DNA of 64,000 bases from Lytechinus pictus (GCF_037042905.1 NC_087251.1:5768001-5832000); one strand, 5' to 3'; positions 1-18,300 are shown, numbered from the stretch's first letter. Notes: a model not told the origin generated them from the sequence alone. Made by a program: numbers and translations.

Positions 1-146
1 TGATTGATTGATAAAAAAATTAACGACACTATCAACACATGCGTGTCATATAAGTGTCGGACAGTTAATCTGGAAAGGTTACTATAATACAGTACAAATT
101 ACCCTAATGCAACTTTACAAAGGATCAGGATTATAATCGAAAAGAA

Positions 147-199
147 GATAGTATGGGGTTAAGGATGGTCCGGGGTTAAGGATAGTATGGGGTTAAGGA
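147..199. repeat. Short tandem repeat (about 3 copies of a 16-17 bp unit, GATAGTATGGGGTTAAG)
   Basis: ggggttaagga recurs three times in succession. Confidence 0.7.
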
Positions 200-341
200 A
201 ATACAGTGTGAAAAGCATAATACCTTCCCCCATCTTCATTATCGATTTGTGGTTACCAATACTGCAATTGATGATCATTGTTCAACTATCTGATATTCAT
301 CTGGGATTTATACCAAATCTATATAATGAAAATAAACTTAC

Positions 342-571
342 TCTTTGGCCTTCAAACAATGCCACAAATTCATCTCCAATCCGTCTCAGTTCTCGTCCAG
401 TAGCGATCTCGGGGGCAACGGGTCTCGCTGGAGCAGAATTGGCTCTACTCCGACGGATAGTTATGAGGTCTGGTAGGGGTTCGGCAAAAGAATTGTCTCC
501 TGCTGGCTCATTAGGAGGGACTGACTCTGGCTCAACGCTTCCCTCAGAGAAGAACCGTGTTCTTCTAGATT
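342..571 (-). CDS. Coding exon of a BH3-only protein (Bim/BCL2L11-like with Bad-like motifs); contains the BH3 domain; gene continues left of the window
   Basis: Minus-strand acceptor tttcag| at 573-572 and donor |gtaagt at 341-340. The 230-nt exon is phase 1 to phase 0 and translates (E)SRRTRFFSEG...RRSRANSAPARPVAPEIATGRELRRIGDEFVALFEGQR. The LxxxGDEF BH3 core is at 389-366. It is phase-compatible with the upstream exon ending CAA G|gtaag at 7218. Confidence 0.9.
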
Positions 572-3500
572 CTGAAAGATACAATTCAAATACAAACATA
601 TGATCAAGGAATATACACAAATTATATGTATCAATCCAGTATTATAGTTCTCTTAAACAGTTGGTCCCTTTACCAGCAATTTTGATGATGTAAAGAGTTG
701 AGTATGAAACAACCAATTCTCATCTTTTCTCTATTTACACATTACAAATAAATCAATGCACTTCTACTAAAGTGTATGAACATAATGCAAGCGCACACTG
801 ACCCATCAATACTATATCTCAATGTCAGCAGAAGATACATACTTCCTGGCGATGCCATATCTGATCGACCATCCACTGATATACAGGCACAAATAGGTGG
901 TCTTAACTTCATAGTGCAGCACATCAAAAGAACTATTACCTTATCCAAGTACTCTTGTATAGTAAACTGACTATTCTATGCTCTAGCCAACAGTTTTTCA
1001 CTGCCCACTCAACTGTTTGCCTATTGTTCACACCCCCACACCCTTTCGACTAACGATGACTAATCACTGGAACAGAAATAGCCCTATTACAAGGAAGCTA
1101 ATAAACTTGGCTTGTGCACCTTGCAACTCTGTGCCCATTGTTTGGTTATGATGACTTGGATCCAGTGGCATCACCACCACTGGGTCCCCCTTCCTTGTCC
1201 AAATTATCTTCAAGCCTTTGAGCCACGATAAAGTTCAACAATCCTGTCTGGTTATGAATCCACATGAAGTCTACTGAAACATCTCATCTGGACTTCATTT
1301 CTCATAAAAGGAAGTTGTGGTCAGGGTTTTATTACAAGTAATCAAAGTCACTGAAGATGTGATCATGTGGGTCGCTATCCGAGAGATCACTGTTCTTTTC
1401 ACAGCCACTGTTCCAAGTCCAACTGAGGTGACTCACCATGTGTAGGTCTTCTAGTATTGTTTTGGTCCTGCAGTCATAACAAAGAAGACCTTGGGTCTTA
1501 TGTCATTACCCAGGGACCAGGGGAATCCCTATGATGCAACTCTATAAATCCCACTAAAACGTATGGTATACCAGGGAGAATTCCCTGGGTATACATATGC
1601 AGTATGCAAATGAAGAATAGAATCTGATGCCTGTCCAAACCTGCCCTGATTTTCTTGCACAAAGGCTATGCAATAATTGTTCAAATATTGTGAACTAAAT
1701 TAGGAGGGACAGAGAGAGAGAGACTGAAAGAAAGAGAGAGAAATAAAAGAAAGAGTTACAATGACCAATATGATTGACGAACAAAAACATTGATCCTAGC
1801 ATTATCATGCTAATCAACCTGAAGACTCTACCATCTATTACACCTTTTGCCTCTAAACAAAGCAAATCAATCTACATGTAATCAACCTTCTATTTTCCTT
1901 CTCACTTGTTGTTTGTTCCTCTCTTCCCATTGGCCAATACTTTCCAGTAGGCTCTGTACATATTCCCTATGTGTTTACATGTGTTGCGTACTCTCCTGTC
2001 AATCAATAACAATGGTCTAGTCTTCGTACCATCCATATGTATGTATTTCTTTTTTTCAATCATAAAGTAAACCCGAGGTTTACCATGCTTATAGGGAAGA
2101 CGAGTGGAACAGGTGGAAAGACAATTTTTATTTTCTAGTAATAAACATGTTTCGACATGTATATCTCAGCTTTAATCAATCATTAAAAAAAAAACTTTTC
2201 TTCTCTTTGGGGTATATTCACACAGACTATCAGGACCAGTGTGTACAGTAGTAGACAATGCAAAGAGAATACGGTTGTTGTGTATGTTTGTGACTGGATG
2301 ATTGGTTAGTTATCATGCTTTGGCTGGCTGACTCATTAGCATACAATGATGTAGAGAGGTAGATTGGGCGTGGTTCCAGTACCCCAGCCTTTCCAGCTCA
2401 GAGGAAGGCCAGGGGTGCTAGCTTCTACCAAACTACCAGTCAACTGTGACCTGCTTTAAGAGGACAAAAACATCCCCTCCTCTCTTTTCAACTTTCCATC
2501 TCTCCTCTTCATTCCTTCCATCCTTCATATTTCTCTTTGAATTTCCCGCTTCAAACATCATTGATGTACTGTTATTTCACATTGAGCAAATGATAGGGAC
2601 GGGAATCAGAGTCAATATTACTGTCATGCTAAAATCAAGGGAGTGGGTGGGGGTTACTACTGTTTATTATTAATGCTCCTTCAAAATCATTTAGGAATTT
2701 CTTTCCACCTCTAAAGAACTGATGTTTCACTATAGATTTAATAACAGGTTTATTTTATTTTCAAGCTTCTTCGATGTTCATTAAATATTTTCATCGCTAA
2801 TTCAACATGTCTTGACAACCATGGACATTTCTATCTACATGTAGGTCTCAGTTGAGGTATCATTCCCCACCAATCACCCCCCCCCCCCCCCCTCTCGCAC
2901 AAAAATTACAAGGTCTATAATTGGGTTAAGATGATGCAATTGATGAGTTGGTCTTAGTGAAGTAAAAGTTCCAAAGTAAGAATATCATTGATATTTCTGG
3001 TGATGTTAAGAATTAAACCTTCAGACCTTACATTTCAAAGATCAAGTTGAATAACATACAACCAGACTCGCTTATGTTTATGTACATAGTCCTGAAACAA
3101 CACACTTTTCACAGATTCAATTACAAAAAAACATCAAAGTTGAGTGTTTATAAATGCACACCACCTGGTTATCTCTCTACCACCATCTATATTTCCTAAT
3201 TTGGTTATTTTACAATGCTGATGTAACCTATTTACTGTTGATATTGCACAACATCTGAGCATTGAGGGCCCTGGGAATCCCGATTGACCTTCAGGTTTTA
3301 GACTCTCTTCTGTCAGATGTACCAGAAAGGCTATCATTTGTATCAGGCTACAGATCTATTTATATTCCACCTCTCACATCCCAACACGTGGCTAATCATA
3401 TGAACATGTCCAGATACTTGACATAGCTTATGTTGCCAAATACAGGATCAAAAATTGTTATTTCTGCGGTCACATGCTGTTCAAGTACTTCTGTGTAACG

Positions 3501-6289
3501 TATTGCTTGCGTCTGCAGGAGGCATGCATAGACCTATCAGATTCATATGAAATTACTTTTGTATACAGTTTGCTTTGTTTTGATGGAAGCCAGTTTGCAA
3601 AAAGTTTAGGCCTTTAGACTGTGAAGAGGATATTAGAATGGCACTACTGTCTGATCAAGCAATTAAACTTAATGCAAATACATAACTCTACAGGCCTACA
3701 CATTGTGTGTAAGCCTACCTGTATAACTAACACCAGTATCGCTCTGATGATCAATTCAAACAAATACATGTAACCTTGATGAAAGAGTTTTGTTTATAAA
3801 TTTCTTTAAAAGGAAGGTGCTTTTCACCTCAGGCACTGAGCTCATGATCATGAAGTCAATTGAATTATTTGCTGGAGTAATCATCTCTTGAAGACCATGT
3901 TCATTAATAATTGATAATACTTCTTGTACTACATGTAGTACTTCTGAATACAAAATGTATGACAAAACATATTTGGCTATCAAAAGCTGTGGAGCTAGTA
4001 CTGTATTGATCAATAGTAAACAATACCCACCTATCCTCAACAAGGGAGTCCCAACTTCACAGTGCTATTGATTACTTAGTTTGTCATAAAGCTCATTATG
4101 TTCTATCTCCGCATTTCAAAGGACTTTGCTGGCGATGGGAGTCCCCTCTTCGCATTGCTCGTAAAGGCGTTACCCCATACCATGATTAGTAAAGAGTTCT
4201 CAAACATTCAAGTTTCTGTTTTTAAAACTCAAAGCAAATCACTAACATATTATGCAGGTAGAAAATTGATTTTTTTTCCTTCTGACTGATGCATTCCAAA
4301 GATAACTGTCATAGCTTACCTGCATATTTCAACAATTAATTTCTTACTCATGACTAATGTATTCTATAAACTGTTAATGAACTAAATTCCCTAAACCCGA
4401 GTGTGTATTCAACAGTGACTTGTTTGTTTAGGCATACATAAAAATGATGTAATATGCCCATTTCCGAAAAGTGTCGCATAGATTTTTAGTAATTAATAAT
4501 AGAGGAAATATACATTTTCCTTTTTGGCATGCAACTGATTAACTGATTAGATGCAAATAAGCTTGTTCCTCTTTATAAACTTAATCTTTCCCTATAAAAC
4601 TAAATAAAAAATAATTGTTGGTAACTGATAAGTGATCCCCATTCAAATTAGGCCCGTTTTGGGTACACGTGTACACACCCGGTCAAGTCAGTGCACGTAT
4701 ACTGAATTCCATGACCGTGTAAAGGTAGCATCTGAATAAAACTTGCGTGGGAGTTGTAAACAAGTGAACAATTATTTAATTGAACACATTTCTATTACAA
4801 TGCTCACAGCCTCACATTAATTCTAGATTGTCAGATGCTGCACAAGTTTTAATCACTAAAATTCCACTTTCATACCCACCCTTGAACCCACAGTACTCAC
4901 TCACATTTCTTTTATGAATGAAATCTGTCTTGGGCCGGCGTGCACGAAGTTTACATATGATGCAGTGACTATTTAGCCATAATCACATTTCTTGGCAATG
5001 TGTCAGACCCAACCAAACATGGCCACATCATTCCTTCATCAGTCACATACATAGTTTAGAAATTCATACTGAGCTGCACTCAATATTAAGGCATATGAAA
5101 CAAACAGATTGCAAAGAGGCACAATAATTTATGAAAATAATCCCTTTTGGATAAGGGCCAAATATAATCAACCTTTGGAGTAGATGAGGTACAGTAGCTT
5201 GCTTAATATACAGTATTACTCTTTACAGTTTTCTGTGTAATAGTTTCTATAACCCTGACCTTTTCAAAAAGTAAACCTCTCCAACAATCTTTGAAAGAAA
5301 CTTGAATAAAAATACCTAACTTTGGAAATAATCTGTATCATTTCATTATGGTTATCCATTGCAGAGTGGCTGATAGCTATAGTATGCATTTTCCATAGTA
5401 ACAAATAAGACCCTTTTTGCATTTTTGGATGGCAAGAGAGCAATGTAGAAAACCTGTATTGATCAAATTAATACTGTCACTCTAAAATGACCCTAACAGT
5501 TAACAAATGTTGATAAAAGGCTTGCAAAAGTCTCACTCATCAGAGCTATCAAGTTCTTATACTATTTAATGTAAGACTGTTGCAGTGAACAATATCTCCA
5601 AAGTGCATTGACATTTGTACAAGAAGATATAGAAACAAATACTTTAATTATACAATAGATGTGGGGAGGGGTGTTCATGCTTTTTGTTTCATACAAGTAG
5701 GCCCTACATGTCTTTAAAAAGCTCTAGATGTTTGTTTGTGTGGGGGTGTGAAGAGAATAAGGGACTAATCATCTCTTCCCAACAAGAGTTCATTTCTATA
5801 AGCTGGAGATGTAATCAGTCTCTTGTAATAAATTATTCATCTGAAGGCAGGCATAGAAGCATCCCATGAGGACCGATGAAAATCCATTGCACTTTTCAAA
5901 TTCAATTTGATAAGCCCATGTTGTAGTAGGTCCATGATTAGCCATAGGAGCGATTTGCATGATAACATTACTTCAAATCAGAGGCAATAAAGCTGAAATC
6001 CATCCATCCATCCCTGGTATCAAGGTTTAAATTCATCCACTCAAAATTTAGCCTTTGAGAAACAATCTCTATTCTTAATCTCATCTTTATATTCTAAACT
6101 GTTTTTTTTCCCCTTTCATTTTTGCGATGAAACAATAAAATGACAAACTCGCAGGTAAACTATGATGGAAAATCAATTGAAAGTCATCAGAAGATGAATA
6201 CTAAGTGATACATTATTGTTATCTTTATTATTATTTGTTTGTGATCACCTGTGCCTGGGAGGAGAAAAGTGAACCGAATCACTGTACCC

Positions 6290-6607
6290 ATAGGTCTCTC
6301 CTGATATGGGGGTGGGGTGGGATGCAGGTGGACCACTATACCAGGGTATCCCCCTACTCATGAATAGTGAAATGGGTTCTTCATGTACAAAGGTGATGAC
6401 TCTCCTCTACAAGGGGCCTCCATTTAACATCCTATCCGAGGGACGGAGTGTTTTCCACTTTAACATAGCCTGCATTTATGGAATATGGAACAGGGGAGGG
6501 ACATGTTTACACACAACTAGGGCTACGGTCATCTGTCCGGGGTGGACTTGAACCCATGACCTTTGGTTTGACAGGCAGACAATTTACCAACTGAGCCCAC
6601 TCGCTCC
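6290..6607 (-). mobile_element. tRNA-derived SINE
   Basis: Minus-strand head GGAGCGAGTGGGCTCAGTTGGTAAA...GCCTGTCAAACC...GGGTTCAAGTCC with Pol III A and B boxes, followed by a non-tRNA body. The 3' boundary is approximate. Confidence 0.7.
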
Positions 6608-7217
6608 CTCAAATCGTTTAAACTCATACCATAAACATATGTAAACATACATTACTCATACATTTGTTTAAACCCCTACCATATACAAAACCATTTCCTG
6701 AAGAAGTCATTTCATGAAGGGACAGAAAGGAGAAGTGTAACTAGAAAAAAATTTACTGGTATGATAAAAGCTATAAAAAGAAAGAAGAAAAACCCCATAA
6801 TTTTGACTTATATACAGTATATATATATGTATATATATATATATACTGTATTTCAGAAGATGCAATGGTTCTAAAACACGTTTGACGTACCAGTAATTGT
6901 GAAGACCAGAAGTAGGTCATATATCTTGACCTTACAACTAATGGTAATATCCTCTTAAGTGGTTATGATTATGCACTGTATGGGTTCAATGTAAAACACA
7001 CATCAATCATTCCTATTCAGCAACAGGCCTGGTCAGTGGCACTAAGGTGTAAAGTTTTGAAATCCTGAACAGCTTGGGCAAAAATAGAGTTGAAAACATC
7101 CTTTGAATTTTCATAAAATATTTTTTTTGGTGATTATTGACATGTTTTTAGAATTTATAATTAATAAATCAAATCACCTTACGAAATGCAGATGATTAAT
7201 GGGTGATGAAATCTTAC

Positions 7218-7836
7218 CTTGTCTTCTGATCCTCATTAGTTCCTGAGGTGATGGCGTCAAGTCCTGATCACTTGAATCAAACAATCGTAAGCTGATTGAT
7301 GTCTCCAGCAAGACTGGTGAGAGGGGCGGAGTCTGGGTTGAGGTACTTTGGAAGAAACGCGGTGCTGACCCATATCCTGATGAGAGCGGGGAAGTTTCTT
7401 CCGGAGGTGAGGAAAAGCGGAATAAATACCCGAAGGAGCTACTACGGGTCGGGGTCCCTATAAAGCTTCCTGTTCCTATTGGACTGAGGAGTGGAATAGG
7501 GATGGGCGGAGAGGTTCCCATTGTTACTGGAGTCTCTGGTCTGGAGGCAGATATGTCCGAAGTCATGTTCTCTGAGAAAACATCCAGCTCCTCATCAATT
7601 ACCTCATCAACACCACTCTCGTCTTCCGATGCTAGTTTCATTTTCATACTCGCTTGGTCCATCTGCATGTTACCCGGCTGAATGAAGCGGGCAGAAGGCG
7701 CCCCAGGGCCGTTACATACATCAACGATCAGTTTCCTGGACGACCTATCACCACTGCTACCTATACTACACACAGACACCTCCACGCTGTTGATACCACG
7801 CAGTGGGGTGCTCACATGGATTTCAAGTTCACTCAT
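7218..7836 (-). CDS. Large coding exon of the BH3-only protein (Ser/Pro-rich, probably disordered region, Bim-EL-like)
   Basis: Polypyrimidine tract plus ctgcag| acceptor (exon starts 7853), ATG at 7836, and phase-1 donor G|gtaaga after 7218. It is open for 206 codons and encodes SPLSSGYGS and FQSTSTQTPP, resembling Bim RSSSGYFS and DKSTQTP. Confidence 0.85.
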
Positions 7837-10800
7837 AATACAGCAACAGATCTCTGCAGAAGATAACACACAAGAAAAAAAATAAATCATATGTTAACAC
7901 TGAATGAGTTCACTTCTATCATTTAAAACTAAGTTATTGTTTGCAATCCTTCATATCCTAGAGGTGCTGAGATTGGTAAACAAACAGGCTATGTTTGCAT
8001 GTTCTCTTCCAAGCCCACTATTAAAGAACTGAGGTCACTCCCTGTACTTTGGTCTCTCTCTTCTACAACACAGGGGATAGATACTACTGGTACACCAGAG
8101 AAAATGAAATTGTTTAAACCTTCAAAACAAATTCATCATAAGATGTCATCGCAATCACAAGATGGGATGAGCCATTGGGATCAAATATCATAAAGCAATA
8201 TCACTTCAGTGTTATTAGATCTTTGCATGTGCACATCCAAATCGAAATGACATAATCTGACACAATAGAAGGTAAGTGTTACATAATCCTCTATTTTCCT
8301 CCCTCAGCTCAACACACATGGCCGATTTACAGCTCTTCATGGCTCCATATTGTTCATTCCAGTAAACTCTACATTAATGTTACCAATCTGCACCTCCTAC
8401 CTATGACGTAAATGGTATACTCCATCACTATTATTTTCTTTCTGGCCCAGCCTTGGAATTCATGTCTGGACTTGTCCATGTTGGGCACGAGCCATCATTG
8501 TTCTGAGAGTGTGACTACCAGATCATGAACTTAAAGGATATGGTGTGTTTCCAACAATGAACTCACCAGAATAATTTATTTACATAATAAAGCCACAAAG
8601 GGTGTTTTTATAATTTCTATTTTTACACTGAACTTACATACATGGAAATTCTACTCTCATGTAGTATCTCAGGATGTTCTTTACTCTTTGGGGGGCTTAG
8701 AGTAGGAAAAGGTATCACTAAAAACCTGCCTTTACTTAATTTACAAACGTAATGCAGGGATAAGCATATCCCTCTAAACACAACCATAACAAATTAACAA
8801 TAGACTTTTAAACTGTATCTTCTCCTTGCTCCTTTAAAGAAACCAGAAACTGTCAACAGATGAGTCCTAAATATATGGTTGTGTTCCTCCAATGCCCAGT
8901 TTATGTCATGAAAACATAAATTGCCTAGTGATTGAAAAGCAACTGGATTGTCCATCCATCCCTGGCACCTACTTCCCAAGTTTACTTGCTTCCCTCCTTG
9001 AACCCAACCCGGTTGGAGCCATGCCAAAAATCTTTTGCAGTTCAGAAACAAAGTTTAGAAGTTTGGAAAGGGAGTGCGCAGAAGATTGATCAGGTGGATC
9101 TCCACTTTATCAGCCTTACCAGAAGCCTGGATTCTTGATGTTACATTTATTTTGCATCTCTTGCATATAACTATAAAGAACAATATGCTACACAAATATA
9201 CTCATGGATTCTATATGTAGGCCGAGATATTGGAAGTACACTGCTGAAAATTGTTGATATATCCAATACGAAATTTGCAAGAGTGCAGTATTGGTTTAAT
9301 AATTAAATACATGTAGCCAAAACAAAATGCTCAACAGTAAAGTCTGAAACTGACATGACAGATAATTTGTTATGATCCTCATCAGTACCCAACTCCCAAA
9401 TTAACTAGAAAATTTATAAAATTAATTTATATCTCCTTAGTTAGGTCAAAAAGTTGTATGTCCCTTTTCTAATCTTCTTCTGACAATAAAACAGCATCAA
9501 TCACGAATTACTATCTAATAGAAGAAAATTGCATGTTTTCTTGCATTGATCATACTGTATTACAGATCAGGTGAAAAGGTTATGTCAGTGTATCTCAGCT
9601 GATGATAAAACAGCTTGTTGAAGCGATAAGAATGGTGTTAATTTACACATTATGAGTGCCATCAACCTTTCCAACCCTCTGACAGCCTATTATCACTTGA
9701 CAGCTGAAGATGATATATAACTGTAGATGTGAAACCAGGAATATGACAGAATACATCATTTTTAAATATGTAGGTCCTATGTGTTGCATGAAAGAGATGA
9801 CTCCAATTCAATGACTAACATTTTCAAACATTTTCTCACAAAAGAAATAAAAAAAGTTAGTTATTTTAATGAAAACGACCCTCTGACTTCAATATGACAG
9901 AGATTATTACCATTATGAAACTCAATGCCTTTTGTTGATTGCCACAATTCTTATACCAAAGGGCGTGAAAACTTTGGCATCAGTACCCAAGGGTAATTAA
10001 GATGTCATTATACGTCTCCTCATATCATATTACAATTGGTGGAGGTAATACAACATCCAATTGGCAATGCAAAACATGTCGTTATTGATTCATGAAGCTC
10101 CCTGATCTGTTGCTCTACTCAACATACCAATCACAATGATCATACCTTCTACCTATGTTTGAAAGCATTTCAATTTCACAATCATCATGATGTCAAAATA
10201 TTATTAGCAACTTGAAGTGTAAACAGTTTCAGATGGACTGTGGGAAAGAACTAGCAATTCCGATATTGCACCTCCAATATCAAATTGATTTGATGTATCA
10301 TCTATTGCTAATGTCAATGTGAAAATATTGAAACAAATAAGATATGTAGGGCATTTTATCATCAAGTTAATTCTGGAGATTCCAAGTATTGTCTATCATT
10401 ACGTGCTTAAAATGTTCATAATTATTTTGTCTCATTATGACATACATGTATGACCTATATATTGTTTCTGAAACAACAGAGATACCAAAAAAAGTACATA
10501 TAAGCCAATGATACTGTTTCTAGATAGAAAAAATGCAAAACCACAAATCAGTGTATTCATCCACAGAAAAAAATAGCAATCAACCCTTAGATGAAAGTTA
10601 ACATTTGGTTTTGACTATCAGCATCACACACTTTTCATCCTCTGCTCTTTACAGCATCCCTCCTTGCTGGAAGACTCAAATCAAGATGACAAGTGCAACT
10701 CACTGTCACATTGCCAAATCTCCAAAGATAGACAGGTGAAGCAAGAAAGAGGGTCAGTGTCTCGTCTGGTCAAAATTTTGAACACCTCACGCTCCTCACA

Positions 10801-12689
10801 CTCTGTAGTATTATGTATTTTGAATGTTTTTTTTTTATGGTGTTTTTCAGTGACAGACAATAACACCCCAGGAGCAGTAGGGGGCATCAGTGGGGTTTCC
10901 CTGTCAACAACTTGACCTGACAGCTGGGTGAAAACTTCCCAGGGTAACACTAAAGTATGAGCAATAAGTTCAACTTGTCCTGTTTCAACGAATACAAATT
11001 GAGATTAATTTGATTGTGAAATCAATGGCTTTTAAATTAAAGCGAGTACATGTATTGTGGCTCATTGAGACATTTTTTTTTTTAAATTTCAGTTGGTAAT
11101 CTGAAGGGCCTATTTTAATTTTCAATGGCTTCTTTTTTAGGAGCGATAAAAAAGAAAAGTTGGGCAGAACTTAAAAAAGTTGTATGACACAAACACACAC
11201 ACCCTCACAAAACCCCAAACAAACAAGGTTGGTGTTACAATTGAAAAACATCATAACACAGCTGTGAAACCAGGGTCCTTTTAAAGCATCCAGGGTAAAG
11301 AAAGGAAGGAGTAACTAAAGAAGACTCAATCCCAGTTTTCTCTTTGTCTGGAACTTCTTGCGGTCAGACAAACGAGACTGGAGTCCACAAGCAACCCACA
11401 AAAACAGTTTTTACACAGATCGACATCTAACCTCGGAGTTGCAAGCTCACAAGGAAGTAGATCCCTCCAATCTTTAGCCTGTCTGCTTTCATGATGAAAA
11501 ACAAATCCGTTGAAAGAGAGAGGTGAAAAACAAGTCATGAAAAGGTTCAGAGCAAAATAAGCTTATCTCCATTCTCCCAAATTGAGCTGATCAGAATTCA
11601 ACGGATCAATAAGTTAATGGATATTCGCAAATTAAAAACATTGTACATGTACTTAAAAATATGACACTAATGACAGGAAAATGAACAAGAATCAACTTCC
11701 TGACATCCCTCAAGCAGATAATTGATTTTCTTTTTCTTTTTTTTGGAGGGGGGGGGTTAGAGGGTACTTAATAGTACAAAAACACAGTGTGGTGCAAGCT
11801 ACACATCGGCCTAACACCGTGGCAAATCATATTTCCTACAAGTTTGAAGTTCATATGAACCTAAAAAAAAGGCCATGCTTTTGAAGACTCACTTGATCAT
11901 TAAATGATATTTAGTCCCCTTTTCCAGACAATGAACAGAAAAGAATTTGGGAGGGGAGATCTTGATATGTCTAAAGGGATAAATTACCTGTCCTTGTCAG
12001 GAAGTAAATGAGGTTATAAACAGGTTACAATGCCACAGGAGTTCAAAAATCAATTAGCACATTTTCCTGTTGTTCATATTAGAGTACAGAAGTTCTCTAC
12101 AGGTGTAGAATGAATGTTTAATACTTTACAGAGAAAACAATTTATAAAAATAATACAAAGACTTACAAAACAATAAATCTCTTTATCATTGAGAATAATT
12201 ACTTTATTTGTTAGGATTGCACAAAGAAATAAAATGAAACAATCTATATTTCAGAGGATGGTGACAAAGGAACAAACTTTGAGGTTAATTCTCATATCAG
12301 AGTCTATCAAAGTTCTTTATATGACACTCATATGTCATCAAAATGACAGAAGGGATAATCAATACAAACCACAATATTAATGACTTCTTTATTAAGATGT
12401 GAACAAAAATAAACACCACAGATCAACAATAGTTCAACAGAAAACTTGCCAAATAGTTTATTGTGGTTTCACCTGAACTGAAGCACTGGGTGAATCAATT
12501 ATGCCAAAGACAGACAATATGACTCTGATCTAGACAATAAAAAAGGTTTTTGTTATGGGCTAGGATTAATGGGACAAAGAAAGCAAGAAAGAAACACCTA
12601 ACCCCCCCCCCCCGAACAGTCAAACACATGCTTCAAATCATTCCTCCCCTAACTTATGAAAATGTAGGTTCTACAAGTATACCCCCCCC

Positions 12690-13184
12690 CCCGGGGGGGG
12701 GGGGGCACACACATATATTGGTGGTACAGGGACTTTCGCTAATTTTCAGTTCTCTAGATACTCCGATTGACAAAAGTTCAGTTCAGATGCCGCCCAGCCC
12801 CGCTCCCAAAACCCCGTTACGAGACATCTCAGTTCCCTAGCCCATGCAAAAATTGTCAAGCACGAGCACCACATGCAAGAGATGCACGCATGGCTTCGCA
12901 ACTCCCTCCATATACCGGTAACTAGTATAGCTGCTCCATGCATGGCTAGTGCATGCACAGCGCTATCATAGAGCTATTATAGCTCTATGGCACTATCATG
13001 CACCGTACACCTACAGTGCCGCGATCCTGTTCCGTAGACCGTTTTTCACACCGCGCAGTATATATTTTATAGTTTGCAGGAACCTGTACTTTGCCATTGT
13101 AGTCATTTCCTTAGACCCCCATTTCAGAGTTTCGTGAGGCACATCCCCATCAAAATTTAATTTGAGTGCCACCCCCCCCCCGGG
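12690..13184. mobile_element. Non-autonomous TIR DNA element with CCCGGGG...CCCCGGG ends
   Basis: Left end cccggg(g)n-gcac, right end gtgcca-(c)n-ggg; GC/CpG-rich interior in an AT-rich context. Confidence 0.6.
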
Positions 13185-16100
13185 TATTTCCCCCCCTCCC
13201 CTTCGTTTGACGAACAACCCAACCAACCACCAATGCCGCAGCCTCTCTGTTGAAATCTTTGTCAGTTTAGATCTAAAGATCTATTTTTAAATGTATCATT
13301 TGTATTGGAAGGTTGCTTGGTGTGTGGTTTTAGAATGTCAACAAAAGGCGTTTAATTACTAACTACACCAATATTAGCAGCCAGATAGTCCCCAGACCTT
13401 GGAACACCCACAATTTCAGGAGCCAAAGAAAGCAGACAAAGTGGTCTTTGTGCAAAATCACATCATCAAAAGTATAAATGAGCCCTAAGGGTGGCAATGA
13501 TGAACTTTTCTGACAAATTAATTGTTCTGTAAATTTCACCTCACATTTCCTCAAAAAAGTGATAAATCCTTTCCAGGTTAAAGCATTGGCAATGTCTCAT
13601 CACTTGTAAAATAAAAGAGATCCATCAATGTCATTCTGTAAATCTTTCCTTTAGGTTACGACCACAATAACCCTTTTTATGACGGATGGATCCTACTGCA
13701 ATCCATGCTATAACTTAAGAGAAAGAAGAAAAAAAACACAAAAAAGAGAAACTACTTCACCTAAAACTAAACAAATAATCTCTCTCTCAAATTGTCAAAT
13801 CCACAACATACCTTTTTATGTTTTTATCACAAAGAAGAAGAAATATTGACCCCTGCATCTCGAACAATATACAATAATGTGTTGCCCATTCTGCATAAAG
13901 AAGTTCCATTAGTTTCCATTTAGAAAGATATATGATTGACAGATTGAACATCATTGCTACGTGATGTACATGTATCATTATTGCAACCAGCCCTACACCT
14001 GAGAACAAGGGCTGATAGGCCTACATCTTGCTTTGGTAGGTCCCTGATCCTGTATGGTAGATACTCCATGCTGTATCCAACACCATGCATGATTTGTACT
14101 CCCCAGTTTATCCAAACAATATCCTCAGTAGTAAGTGCCCCCTAATTAATCCCTTGGATTAAGGTTGACCTGAGGTGAGGACAAGGTTATACCCCTCCAA
14201 CAACTTCCCTGGCAGGAAAAGAAAGGTCATGGAGAGGTCTACTTGCTGTATTCTGTTTATCAATGATTTAGCTAAATCTTCCCTTAGCCTCAGGCTTTAC
14301 CTGCTACTCTGTCTAGACTCCTTGGTCTAGTCATGGAGATATTTTGTATCCAGGGAATTGTGAATGAGATGGTCTAGCCAAGGACCATGATGGAAACCTC
14401 AAGTCTACCTTGCTATTCTACAGTAAAAAGTACTAAAACGGTGCAACCAGTACATGTAATAATTAAAAAAAGCTTCTGATGGCCCATGTGCAGCTCTTTA
14501 CTTTACAGCTATTTGAAGTATGAAACATTTGTAATCTAAAAATAGAATCATAGAAACTGACAAAAATATGGTGTAAATGCATAGGCCTATATTCTAATAA
14601 AAAAATGATACCACACAGAAAATGACTTAAGTAGTTTTTCCATTTGAAGCGTATCTTTATATACATTTTTTCCTAATTCAGACAAAATTTGTCTACTGGG
14701 AGTGCTTAGTCCATGACACACAATATACCAGTCAAATGAGGTAATCAAACTGCTGTTGGACTGGTTATTATGGGTATTTCCCCAAGGAGAGAGCATTTAC
14801 ACCTACTCTAAAGGTTGCATGCTGGCCTGGTTAAAGGGACCACAATTGTCATCAAAAATTGATTGGGATAGCGGCCATTCTACACTGCAGTATTAAGGCC
14901 TACATGTAATCAAATTGGTTCAATATTAGCTGCAAAAGCCACGTGGAAAACAAAAATAATGAGAACCCCATTTTTCTTTGTTCCATCTGTGGATGCCCTG
15001 AAAAAAAAGTGGCACTTCCCTTAAAACATAGCAAACAGCAATGTACATGTAGACTTACATTCAAACTCTTTATATTTAGTTCACAAACCTATTCTAGCCG
15101 TGGAAATGCACTTTTCCATCTCAAACTATACATGACATGTATTTATTTTCGAGAACATGAAGACATATATGATCTAATACATGTAGGGATAACACAAGAT
15201 CTTGTACACTTGTGAATTATGAATGATTTTGGACTTTTCCCCAAAGTGCTTGAAAATGACAAAGATATGAGGAACCCTCCCCACTCTTCAGTATATCAAT
15301 ACAATTCCCAATGATTCGTTAGTCGAAGTCTACTGAAGCGTAGTGTTAATATCATGGTCAAGAGGTCACACTAATGGAATGAAACCAATGACTTGACCGT
15401 ATGTCTGACACGAGAGCAATGCATCAAGAACCATAAGCTTTAGCCAATTTTATATCAAATCTAAAAGTAGCTGATTGGGAGAATCCAAATAGGAACTGAT
15501 CGCACTCTGAATAACCCAGACTCGCTACCCTGGGAATTTCTAGGTTCATGAGTATATATCATGCTGTTTACTGGAGTTAGAATCAGAGAGGCCTACATTA
15601 AAACATTTTTTCTACTCAGATTTCCAAATATGGTTTGTGTCAATGACACGCTGGTTTGCTACCGGTAATCAGTTAGCAATTTAACACAAACAGCACAATA
15701 CATGTTAATATTGATCTCATAATTACATGTAAATGTAGGACAGGGTTAGAAAGGCCAGTGATTTACTCACCAAATGACTTGATTGATGTGTAAGAAACAC
15801 AATCAACAATTCTTGTTCTCAATTCTCCTTCACTTTCTTTTTAGTATGATTGAGGCTACACTGGAGCAAGGATAATGACCTTCAATCTAAAAATAGAAAT
15901 TATGTTTCTATTCACCAGGTTTGCCTTTATTTCAATGCTACCCATCCACATTTGATAAGATTATCTAATCAAGCTTTGTCTTCAACACATCAAAAACTTG
16001 TTTTGATATGAGGGTATTGCCCTGTGATCTATCTAGCTTCTGTGTCGTTTGTTTTTCTTTCAGGAGGTTTCAAAACTAAAAAAAAAGGGCCTCACACTAT

Positions 16101-17716
16101 ACAGCTGGTAAGAAGTGAAGCTGGTTATTATGGTCAAGTATATTTTTACAACTTATTGTACAAGTTGAGACACGTTGGTATATTTATCACTCATTCAAGA
16201 GTTATCACTTGTTGTTGATGGTCTAAGAATAGATAGAGACCTTATAGTCTACATACTAATTACCCATAAATTGAAAGTGAAAATAAGAAACTTCTGAATG
16301 TATACACCCGAATAAAATATTCACTGACTGTTATCTTCACTCAATCAAAAGTATTTATTTCTAACATTATATGACCTAACCAAATAATACTTATTGTAAA
16401 GTTAGGATATATTTTGTGTTTTTATGTTTTCTTTTTCTGAACAATTTGGTCTCATGTGAACAAAATCAACTTGTTGGCAATTATTCTAGCGATTATTGGC
16501 TAAAGGATGTGACCTCAATATCTTAATTCTAAATTCACTACAATCATTTTCGCACACATACCACCCCCCCCCCCCTTCAATAACATGTGAATAATCTGGG
16601 CTGATGGAAAAAAAATGTTGCTGTCTCCACTTTTACATGTACACAAAAAATACCGGTACAGGCAAGACATTAAAAAAAAGCCAACTGACCCTTACAAATT
16701 TCAGACTTTTTTGGAAAAGTCAACTTGTACTTTCCATCTTTCACAATCATATTCTATCGAAAGCATATATAAACATTTTTTTATTCAGGGACAAAGGAGC
16801 AAGCAATATTCAATTTTTCCAGGTAAAATTTGAAAATCAATACTAGCTTGCCTGTTAGCACTAAAATTTGTTCACTTAAAATCTTTTGTCCCTGCTCGAA
16901 CTCTAAGCCATAATCTTAGAAATTACAAGCATACACACTACAGAGAAATGGAGTGATTAACCTGACGTCCAGTGCCCTAACCCAGCCAGCTTGCCACGCT
17001 TCTATCTACTCCTTAGAGCAGTCAAGAAAACGGAGGTCACTAATAATTCTTAGAATAGTTGTGAATGCACTAAGGCGTTATGAGAAAAACACAACAAGGG
17101 CAACAATAATTACCACATCAATATATTTAGCATTACATCAGTTGAAAGAGAGGTTATGACAATAGGTACTATAAAGACCATATGTACCTAGACAACGACT
17201 AAGAGGTTGGCACGTATCCCAAATTTGACCTTAAGTTTATTGATCAGGTATTGCATGTACCCATCTTTGTTTATTGTAAACATCCAAATCTGGGTACTTA
17301 ACTACCATATCTAATGAACCTCACTGATTGATTACACATGCAGATCATAATGAAAACTGAAAATCAGACAAACAAAAACACTCCTGAAAGTACAAAATTG
17401 TCTGTATTTATTTTTTCGTTACAGGCCCTAAATTGTTTTTTATAAGACGGCACTTGCTTGAATACCAGATTCCACTCGGAAATATATTTAGGTACCTGGG
17501 GCTGAGCCATCCAGACTTTACAGATCAGGTCAGTCTGGCCTGGGAGTCCTGTACCTCAAGCTACATTTTATACCTCAAACACTGCAGAACAATAAAGGCA
17601 CATCTTCAGGTGTTTCCATTTTAAACAGCTCAAATGCAACTTTTGTCTTGCCTGTCTGGATGAAAGTTTCAACATCCTCATTACTTTCATAAATTTCTTT
17701 GTTTTCAACCACTTAC

Positions 17717-18300
17717 CAAGTGAATATTTTAGTTCCTTGCACAGGATACAACTCTTGTCTCTGTCCTTAGTTTTACGAAATATGTTTAGCTCCTTGAAAG
17801 TCGACACCAGGATATTTATCTCCCAGAACATGCCAACAGACTCTCTCACGAGGCGGCATCAAAGTCAAACAGATACCGGTACTTGATGTGAATGAGTTTT
17901 CGATACAAGTTTTTATATCTAGCTTCAGTTTACAAATGTAGCTTGCATGAGAAAAATTTTTCACAATGCTTATACCTTGGTTCATACAGTTCAGAGCCTT
18001 CAGTTTGTAAATCCTGGCACAATGAATGAATGGAACCCATAGATCAGCTGAGTACAGGTCAATAATAATAATATCCACAGACTGTCAGGAGGCAGCTTGT
18101 TAAATGCTGCAGAGCTGATAATGACAGGTTACTACTATACTACTATGATTCACTCAACCAGATTTTTTTTTTCTTTTCTATCTGCCTGATTACTACAATG
18201 GTGTGTGCAGTCAAAACACAGTCATCAAGGGCACTGCCTAGGTAAACAGACTGATCCATTCTGAAGCAGGGAAGCTGAGGTGGTTGTGTTTTTGTATTCC
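17717..18300 (-). other. Candidate alternative first exon of the BH3-only gene (5' boundary approximate)
   Basis: Strong donor CTTG|gtaagt at 17716-17715 lies directly downstream (minus sense) of a promoter-like motif cluster at 18360-18590. An ATG at 17831 would be in frame with the 7853 acceptor. Confidence 0.35.

Follow-up and report, generated by a model that had tools for sequence, protein, structure and literature searches.

A sea urchin BH3-only-type gene that joins candidate Bad-type and Bim/Bmf-type regulatory motifs in one protein

The BH3-only proteins that trigger apoptosis are usually treated as unrelated proteins that share one short motif, and their origin is debated. Vertebrate BAD is described as inactive when 14-3-3 binds its phosphorylated Ser112 and Ser136; Ser155, within the BH3, is a second lock, and calcineurin reverses the inactivation (PMC3403084). 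Bim and Bmf are clients of LC8 and are restrained by it, with the triplet TQT as the anchor (PMC12017986, PMC3078936), and the LC8 motif of Bmf is given as EDKATQTL (PMC3078936). Here we describe LOC129265098, a gene of the sea urchin Lytechinus pictus whose predicted protein carries a TQT motif, two Bad-type sites and a BH3 in a single polypeptide. It was found in a stretch of 64,000 nucleotides, hereafter the window (G000:C7:5768001-5832000 of an 812-Mb assembly), and it extends beyond the start of that stretch.

Two echinoderm proteins, one of 373 aa from Strongylocentrotus purpuratus and one of 350 aa from Acanthaster planci, have been listed as ‘potential BH3-only proteins’ after searches with human Bim, Bad and Bmf as seeds, and their authors ask for experimental confirmation of the candidates (Banjara et al. 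2022, PMC8998228). There the candidates are presented by their BH3 region, and ‘14-3-3’, ‘dynein’, ‘LC8’ and ‘phosphorylat’ have 0 occurrences in the main text. The S. purpuratus protein P0008 (LOC100888667, 373 aa, the length given in PMC8998228) is 87% identical to the L. pictus protein, and by sequence comparison the L. pictus gene is the orthologue of the published candidate. Nothing in the open-access literature that we searched proposes one gene behind Bim, Bmf and Bad or describes TQT together with 14-3-3 sites in an invertebrate BH3-only protein. The gene appears to be a new member of a published candidate family, with the dual-toolkit architecture and the ancestry argument appearing to be new. 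We consider it probable that LOC129265098 encodes a BH3-only death trigger and is the unduplicated counterpart of BAD, and probably also of BMF and BIM.

The feature from which this analysis started was a pair of exons that a preliminary description, made from the window alone, had joined into a protein of at least 283 aa. It is the central part of a real, expressed gene. The translation of the second of these exons (exon C) is 100% identical to the RefSeq ‘uncharacterized protein LOC129265098’ (P0005, 370 aa; its numbering is used throughout), and the RefSeq model places four coding exons on the minus strand across ~20.7 kb. Both claimed exons stand, as does the count of 283 codons, with 206 from the ATG at 7836 to 7218 and 77 from 571-342; a further donor, AGA/gtaagt at 342/341, explains the words ‘at least’. 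The extent of the gene does not stand as first drawn, in that exon B starts at 7853 and not at the ATG, and there are at least four coding exons:

Exon A, coding part: 17717..17831, minus strand; annotated start Met, 38 codons and the first base of a split Glu codon.
Exon B (636 nt): 7218..7853, minus strand; N-terminal region with SPPIPIP, SSGYGS, STSTQTP and the ATG at 7836-7834.
Intron B-C (6,646 nt, phase 1): 572..7217, minus strand; GT at 7217-7216 and AG at 573-572, removed in 4 of 4 runs.
Exon C (230 nt): 342..571, minus strand; both RxRxxS sites, PLPD and the BH3.
Donor GT of the final intron (phase 0, 8 codons after DEF): 340..341, minus strand; placed by sequence and by contig ends at 342.
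Exon D (43 aa, ending GSSV): G000:C7:5765161-5765292, equal to window -2839 to -2708, minus strand; placed by a genome search with P0005, of which it matches residues 327-370.

The splice between exons B and C was proposed from sequence and is confirmed by RNA. Donor CAAG/gtaaga at 7218/7217 joins acceptor tttcag/AATCT at 572/571 on the minus strand. For transcript evidence we aligned three contig sets (two from organism A, the third from organism B) and the raw reads of one RNA-seq run (X24) to window positions 1-18000. The joint from 571 to 7218, which skips 6646 nt and reads CT..AC on the plus strand (GT..AG on the minus strand), is spanned by a single contig in each of X1, X15 and X5 and by four raw reads of X24, and P0005 carries the identical junction. 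Exon B is spanned fully by contigs of X1, X15 and X5 with 0-3 differences. Further upstream, the A-B joint from 7853 to 17717 (9863 nt skipped, GT..AG on the minus strand) is found in 4 of 4 runs, and residues 1-38 map to 17831-17718 at 100% identity (tblastn); the exon A donor reads CTTG/gtaagt, and the leader reaches at least 18000. Contigs of X15 and X5 match the genome exactly up to 342 and then continue elsewhere, so the donor at 342/341 is in use; exon D lies ~2.7 kb outside the window start. Read-through past 342/341 (VSLFSLYRFGINPR*) is ruled out by these contig ends and by the RefSeq protein, which continues with exon D.

As judged by profile searches, the product is a Ser/Pro-rich BH3-only-type protein in which the BH3 helix is the sole recognisable functional element. 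Bclx_interact (PF08945) scores 27.7 bits on exon C and 28.3 bits in a genome scan, with a cut-off of 25; Pfam has no match within the part encoded by exon B, and at E<=10 the Bcl-2 fold (PF00452) has none either, whether in P0001, in exon C or in P0005. Every motif quoted in the preliminary description is present in the open reading frames (ORFs) 7893..7174 and 641..297 on the minus strand. In order along the protein, the elements are:

SPPIPIP (residues 153-159): 7492..7512, minus strand; conserved S-x-P-I-x-I-P island.
SSGYGS (residues 196-201): 7366..7383, minus strand; invariant in 5 of 5 echinoderm proteins.
STSTQTP (residues 208-214): 7327..7347, minus strand; candidate LC8/DYNLL docking site, with TQT at 7338-7330.
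RTRFFS (residues 254-259): 546..563, minus strand; first predicted site of basophilic-kinase / 14-3-3 type.
PLPD (residues 282-285): 468..479, minus strand; conserved island, invariant in echinoderms.
RSRANSAP (residues 291-298): 429..452, minus strand; second such site, RxRxxSxP.
BH3 helix (residues 303-323): 354..416, minus strand; core GRELRRIGDEF at 398-366.

These motifs exceed chance because they are conserved in the echinoderm alignment. Across five echinoderm proteins, from sea urchins and a starfish, the invariant columns include SSGYGSAPR, STQTP, R254/R256/S259, R291/R293/N295-P298 and G309..F319. A wider alignment of 20 sequences, which includes fish BAD, leaves P155 and P159 of the first island and all of T211, Q212 and T213 nearly invariant; R256 is invariant there and R254 nearly so. 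D285 of PLPD and L312, R313, R314 and D317 of the BH3 are also nearly invariant across phyla. S296 of the second site stands 16 residues ahead of L312. The TQT side is encoded by exon B, and the 14-3-3-type sites and the BH3 by exon C; with the two toolkits on separate exons, loss of one module would be easy. Calcineurin docks on peptides of the PxIxIT consensus, and SPPIPIP may, speculatively, be a docking site of this kind.

The same arrangement recurs in much of Bilateria. A profile built from the five echinoderm proteins and run against 1.84 billion representatives recovered 47 proteins at E<=1e-3. We looked up ten representatives, eight of which have a source name. The named matches are from the crinoids Antedon and Anneissia, the brittle star Amphiura, the hemichordate Ptychodera, the amphioxus Branchiostoma, the brachiopod Lingula, the annelid Owenia and the abalones Haliotis, along with one fish BAD (E 5e-4). 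Seven of the eight are invertebrate and all of these are labelled ‘uncharacterized’ or ‘unnamed’; adding ‘hypothetical’ covers every named invertebrate member, in keeping with the earlier remark that BH3-only genes are poorly annotated outside vertebrates. Motifs were counted in 52 family sequences, of which 47 have the BH3 pattern and 22 of those are at least 230 aa long (‘long’ members). All 22 long members have TQT ahead of the BH3, 19 have at least two RxRxx[ST] sites between TQT and BH3, and 21 have R.R..S.P, the 22nd having Thr for the Ser. Before TQT, 20 of the 22 have P-x-hydrophobic-x-hydrophobic-[PQR], a P-x-I-x-I-P-like island. From the second-site Ser to the BH3 Leu there are 14-16 residues in 12 deuterostome members and 18-20 in 9 of 10 others. 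The order is fixed: S-x-P-I-x-I-P, TQT, RxRxxS, PLPD, RxRxxSxP, BH3 and a basic/aromatic tail. TQT, the two RxRxxS sites and the BH3 are conserved in the echinoderm, hemichordate, amphioxus, brachiopod, annelid and mollusc orthologues. This conservation removes one way in which the preliminary description had expected to be refuted, namely that the Bad-like motifs would not be conserved in orthologues. On these alignments, TQT united with Bad-type sites is the state that this bilaterian family, which is closest to BAD, has conserved.

Two of the likenesses to Bim that had been proposed look different in this wider sample. RRIGDEF, read at first as a Bim signature, is present in L. pictus, but it is not an ancestral Bim trait: the position of its Gly is Ser, as in Bad, in 41 of 47 members, and Gly in the other 6, all sea urchins, which makes the Gly a sea urchin novelty. 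SSGYGS had been compared to a beta-TrCP degron of Bim. The motif exists and is kept in all five echinoderm proteins, but [SD]SGY beside TQT is confined to echinoderms, so the beta-TrCP reading is tentative. SSGY-x-S near TQT is a likeness to Bim as the preliminary description gives the Bim string. Lophotrochozoan relatives (P0027-P0051) have [KR]RDSGY-x-[ST]D-x-SPA near the N-terminus, where the deuterostome members lack it, and this DSGY motif does not align with the echinoderm SSGY. Its DSGY-x-[ST] fits DSGXXS, given as the beta-TrCP consensus (PMC13097077).

How, then, does the family compare with each vertebrate protein? By alignment it resembles BAD most outside the BH3 and Bim within it. 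BLASTP against fish BAD gives 6e-8 for A. planci, over 40 aa covering the second site and the BH3, and 3e-6 for L. pictus, and fish BAD is the only vertebrate protein among the 47 profile matches. Bcl-2_BAD (PF10514) matches 18 of the 20 aligned members at E<=1, and Bclx_interact 15 of 20; A. planci (29.2), Antedon (29.8) and Ptychodera (29.7) pass the Bcl-2_BAD cut-off of 28.2 bits. Like BAD, the L. pictus protein has two RxRxxS sites before the BH3, RTRFFS and RSRANSAP aligning with RIRLSS and RGRSNSAP of fish BAD (P0049), a near-equal distance from second-site Ser to BH3 Leu (16 in L. pictus, 15 in fish BAD), a GR[EQ]LRR-x-x-DEF core followed by a short basic/aromatic tail, and neither membrane anchor nor Bcl-2 fold. 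Unlike BAD, it is about twice as long (370 vs 163 aa for fish BAD), its N-terminal half holds SPPIPIP, SSGYGS and TQT, none of which were found in fish BAD by motif scan and alignment, and the BH3 Ser of BAD (RR-x-S-DEF) is Gly in L. pictus and in five other sea urchin sequences.

The likeness to Bim (BCL2L11) centres on the BH3 region. PEI, two residues and x-ELRRIGDEF align with Bim peptides in the PDB. Queried alone, the protein has 16 PDB matches, every one a Bim BH3 peptide (E 0.12-1.7); the echinoderm profile has 33, headed by 17 Bim BH3 peptides (E 7.3e-5 to 0.038), with a BAD peptide first appearing at rank 18 (E 0.051). Upstream of the BH3 there is, as in Bim, a candidate LC8 motif of the TQT type (STSTQTP, 208-214). 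Bim ends in a hydrophobic membrane anchor, whereas the last exon of the L. pictus gene encodes 43 polar, Ser/Arg-rich residues that end in GSSV and form no such anchor; the L. pictus protein also has no match to Bim_N and, unlike Bim, has two 14-3-3-type sites. Like Bmf, it is a disordered protein that has no anchor and carries a TQT motif ahead of its BH3; it differs from Bmf in that this BH3 is of the Bad/Bim type. A homologue search with residues 186-330 scored 18 candidates and gave three matches, all echinoderm, with no vertebrate Bim or Bmf among them. Comparisons of the SSGY-TQT region with Bim and Bmf rest on strings in the preliminary description, BH3 peptides in the PDB and motifs quoted in papers. 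Of the idea that both regulatory toolkits are present in one polypeptide, the TQT and the two RxRxxS sites hold good; the Bim features RRIGDEF (with its Gly), Bim_N and the membrane anchor do not.

Potential partners of the BH3 are encoded elsewhere in the genome. About seven Bcl-2-family loci (8 matches) are distributed as two on C5, two on C16 (with a Bcl-2 homologue at 22.47 Mb), two on C19 and one on C9, all on contigs other than C7, which carries LOC129265098. One Bcl-2-like gene on C5 (L008 1492-2130, minus strand, equal to G000:C5:9354748-9355050) is a single 213-codon ORF with a Mcl-1-like BH3, LRRVGDEV, and an NWGR BH1. We modelled residues 288-340 of the L. pictus protein with residues 70-210 of this ORF, alongside three controls. 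The predicted complex has an ipSAE of 0.90, against 0.02 for the best control; the mark used for ipSAE is reached by 51 of 78 solved complexes and by 2 of 108 mismatched pairs. Runs share at least 86% of contacts, and the partner has pLDDT of at least 64. In the model the interface comprises residues 303-323, with L312, I315 and F319 in the groove and D317 on R161 of NWGR. BH3 and Bcl-2 are a textbook pair, so the result may reflect likeness to solved complexes and not binding by this copy.

No second BAD-like locus was found in the L. pictus genome when we looked for a separate Bad gene. A six-frame search with P0005 found nothing beyond the four exons of the gene itself (5 candidates scored, 4 matches), a scan with PF10514 returned only LOC129265098 (1 candidate), and a scan with PF08945 added to this locus a single weak site on C3 (18.2 bits, E 2.67). 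Exon-by-exon searches are weakly sensitive, so the lack of a second locus is absence of evidence. The C3 site (L007 1489-1623, plus strand, equal to G000:C3:32440169-32440225) is a BH3-like ORF with LRDIGDEF and no Bcl-2-domain match nearby, perhaps a further BH3-only candidate and perhaps a match by chance.

The genomic surroundings of the family gene extend the comparison to Bim and Bmf. LOC129265098 lies at 5.77 Mb on C7. On the same chromosome are the sole matches to Mad3_BUB1_I (BUB1, 17.43 Mb), the sole match to EHD_N (18.90 Mb) and both PLC-beta genes (1.33-1.39 and 43.62-43.67 Mb), detected as PH_14 matches at 43.67 and 1.33 Mb, each with PI-PLC-Y nearby; other PLC genes are on C1, C2, C6, C12 and C14. 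The chance of four independent genes falling on C7 (~49.7 Mb if the record is right, ~6% of the genome) is ~1e-5, a rough value because we chose the markers ourselves and because the PLC-beta pair is possibly not independent. Mouse Bmf (118,354,493), Bub1b (118,423,992) and Plcb2 (118,533,253) are within 180 kb on chromosome 2, where Bub1 is at 127.65 Mb (PMC3435402, Table 3); BUB1, ACOXL, BCL2L11, ANAPC1 and MERTK are in one 1.7-Mb 2q13 deletion (PMC13397852); and human PLCB3 and BAD, both placed at 11q13.1, form a fusion transcript (PMC5370005), which may be read-through of adjacent genes, the source giving the band only. That mammalian BUB1 and PLC-beta paralogues flank BIM, BMF and BAD supports a single ancestor, and the C7 linkage fits a pre-duplication segment that held BUB1, PLC-beta, EHD and one BH3-only gene and that, in vertebrates, would have become the neighbourhoods of BIM, BMF and BAD. 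BBC3 (PUMA) is at 19q13 with EHD2 nearby, and the positions of EHD1-4, BBC3 and the TAM receptors would extend the pattern to 19q13.

RxRxxS is an Akt-type consensus and RSxSxP a 14-3-3 binding mode. If the motifs act as they do in vertebrates, survival kinases of the Akt/RSK/PKA type would phosphorylate S259 and S296, and a 14-3-3 dimer would clamp both phospho-sites and mask the BH3 a few residues downstream, as in vertebrate BAD. An LC8/DYNLL dimer would dock on the TQT, as it does in Bim and Bmf, and would contribute dimerisation or sequestration. Once free, the BH3 (303-323) would enter the groove of pro-survival Bcl-2 homologues and so release effectors of the Bax/Bak type. After the vertebrate genome duplications, the 14-3-3 sites would have disappeared from BMF and BIM, which retained the TQT side. 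A specific form of this history, in which one bilaterian sensor gene passed through two rounds of genome duplication (2R) together with BUB1 and PLC-beta and gave rise to BAD, which lost TQT, and to BMF and BIM, which lost the 14-3-3 sites, is a tentative proposal to which we give slightly less than even chances. PUMA may be a fourth copy.

Several observations weigh against a death trigger that is the shared counterpart of all three vertebrate genes. Phosphorylation, 14-3-3 binding, LC8 binding and killing are functions that we infer from short motifs in a disordered protein, and short motifs arise easily in disordered proteins. The urchin BH3 has Thr at h1 and Gly in place of the BH3 Ser. 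The Pfam results divide: Bclx_interact is over its cut-off on the exon but marginal on the full-length protein (24.5 vs 25), and Bcl-2_BAD stays below 28.2 bits in L. pictus (19.0 full length, 20.7 exon C, 17.6 genome scan). BMF (PF15185) and Bim_N (PF06773) have no match in the five echinoderm proteins at E<=10; across the 20 members there is one weak BMF match (Ptychodera, 16.9 vs 27 bits) and one weak PUMA match. No Bim or Bmf protein is among the 47 profile matches, and thus, apart from the BH3 and TQT, sequence does not tie the family significantly to Bim or Bmf. Neighbours in the ESM Atlas (BMF, PUMA/BMF and Bim clusters) score 0.80-0.87, short of the 0.9 level, and count only as leads; a BAD cluster is not listed there. 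The linkage on C7 holds only at the scale of the chromosome, with the markers 4.4 to 38 Mb from LOC129265098, and these markers were picked by us from among human neighbours. PLC-beta_C (PF08703) and ANAPC1 (PF12859) have no match in the genome and are uninformative as markers, and GOST_TM is ambiguous, since C7 and C15 each have a gene. At -3 the natural consensus around TQT has a basic residue (PMC3078936), which is missing in the urchin. The suggestion that an ancestral sensor was partitioned among vertebrate paralogues gains support from the synteny. We regard common ancestry with Bim and Bmf as plausible, though unproven.

Could the family be orthologous to BAD alone? The TQT would then be an old trait of the BAD lineage that vertebrates lost, and Bim and Bmf would have gained TQT and BH3 independently. 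We hold this to be unlikely, though far from negligible. It would account for a family profile that recovers only BAD from vertebrates, for a BAD likeness that covers the 14-3-3 site as well as the BH3 with matching spacing, for the Ser of Bad's BH3 in 41 of 47 members and for the silence of the Bim_N and BMF profiles, and it agrees with a review that, citing Aouacheria 2013, calls BH3-only proteins polyphyletic (PMC11463336). Against it stand the neighbourhoods BUB1-BCL2L11, Bub1b-Bmf-Plcb2 and PLCB3-BAD, which are expected if three genes were duplicated with their neighbours, and the presence of one BUB1 and one family gene on the same sea urchin chromosome. Moreover, the stretch ahead of and into the BH3 (PEI, two residues, x-ELRRIGDEF) is closer to Bim than to BAD peptides.

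Two further alternatives do without either ancestry or a death function. Every shared element is only 3-12 residues long, most L. pictus profile scores are under the curated cut-offs, and the single-sequence PDB matches have E values of 0.12-1.7, all as expected if short linear motifs had converged in an independent invertebrate BH3-like protein that has no vertebrate BH3-only orthologue. But RxRxxS, RxRxxSxP and BH3 have the same order and equal spacing in fish BAD (15) and in deuterostome members (14-16), the pairwise E value against BAD reaches 6e-8, three invertebrate members are over the BAD gathering score, and synteny also favours kinship with BAD, Bim and Bmf; we judge such convergence improbable. 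Slightly less probable still is that the BH3-like helix and phospho-sites serve primarily a metabolic or autophagy role or an LC8/14-3-3 scaffold, and not a death trigger. The family is known from sequence, the first hydrophobic position of the urchin BH3 is Thr, and reviews note that apoptosis in echinoderms may not follow the scheme of mammals (PMC8998228, PMC7022251). Yet the genome offers potential partners in its Bcl-2-family loci, the model places the predicted helix in the canonical groove with an Asp-Arg pair, and L312, R313, R314 and D317 are nearly invariant across phyla.

Motifs of the Bad phospho-switch type and of the Bim/Bmf LC8 type are combined in one, apparently single-copy, protein across invertebrate phyla. 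The motif union, together with the paralogous neighbours in mammals, makes a testable model of subfunction partitioning after genome duplication. If it is true, mammals have eight BH3-only genes of which at least three would be monophyletic, contrary to the usual view, and sea urchins would be a system for studying the undivided sensor. The sea urchin embryo is tractable for dissecting how survival-kinase and cytoskeletal inputs reach one BH3-only protein. The comparison also suggests a function-based name for genes labelled ‘uncharacterized’ in at least six phyla.

The gene may produce more than one protein. A further exon lies within the B-C intron:

Alternative exon: 1120..1424, minus strand; joined to exon C.

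The joint from 571 to 1120 (548 nt skipped, GT..AG on the minus strand) has a depth of 5.4 in X1 and 15 in X15 and one read in X24, and it was not seen in X5; contigs span 1120-1415 and 1120-1424. The frame that enters exon C is open from an ATG 17 codons upstream of the donor. Tentatively, this exon could give a short, Bad-sized form with no TQT that keeps the 14-3-3-type sites and the BH3; its role may be that of a first or of a cassette exon. Annotated proteins of Haliotis rubra (128 aa) and a sea cucumber (118 aa) are likewise short forms.

Translation of the long form could begin at the annotated Met in exon A or at the ATG at 7836-7834, and the annotated start of the crinoid and brittle star orthologues and of one starfish orthologue is the equivalent of ATG 7836. 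The N-terminal 44 residues annotated for P0005 may not be made. The exon A leader (17832-18000, minus strand) has several upstream ATGs and short upstream ORFs (uORFs), one of which overlaps the annotated start, and uORFs may control translation of LOC129265098.

At the other end of the protein, sea urchins, starfish and two hemichordate sequences all finish in GS[SAP]V (P0005 residues 366-370, encoded by exon D). Class I PDZ domains bind C-terminal tails of such a pattern, and the end may be a class I-like PDZ-binding tail, which is not known as a feature of Bad, Bim or Bmf. Among the relatives, P0016 of Amphiura filiformis (720 aa) has ~400 extra N-terminal residues before the family core; this extension may be a fused gene model or a real domain gain.

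Elsewhere in the window, RNA-contig depth rises to hundreds to thousands at 1-220, 4650-4820, 6225-6600 and 12700-13180, with many joints and loose ends, which suggests dispersed repeats transcribed from other loci. Rfam and ARAGORN gave no match in the window. By eye, 6480-6600 looks tRNA-derived, and 120-200 contains tandem GGGGTTAAGGA-like units.

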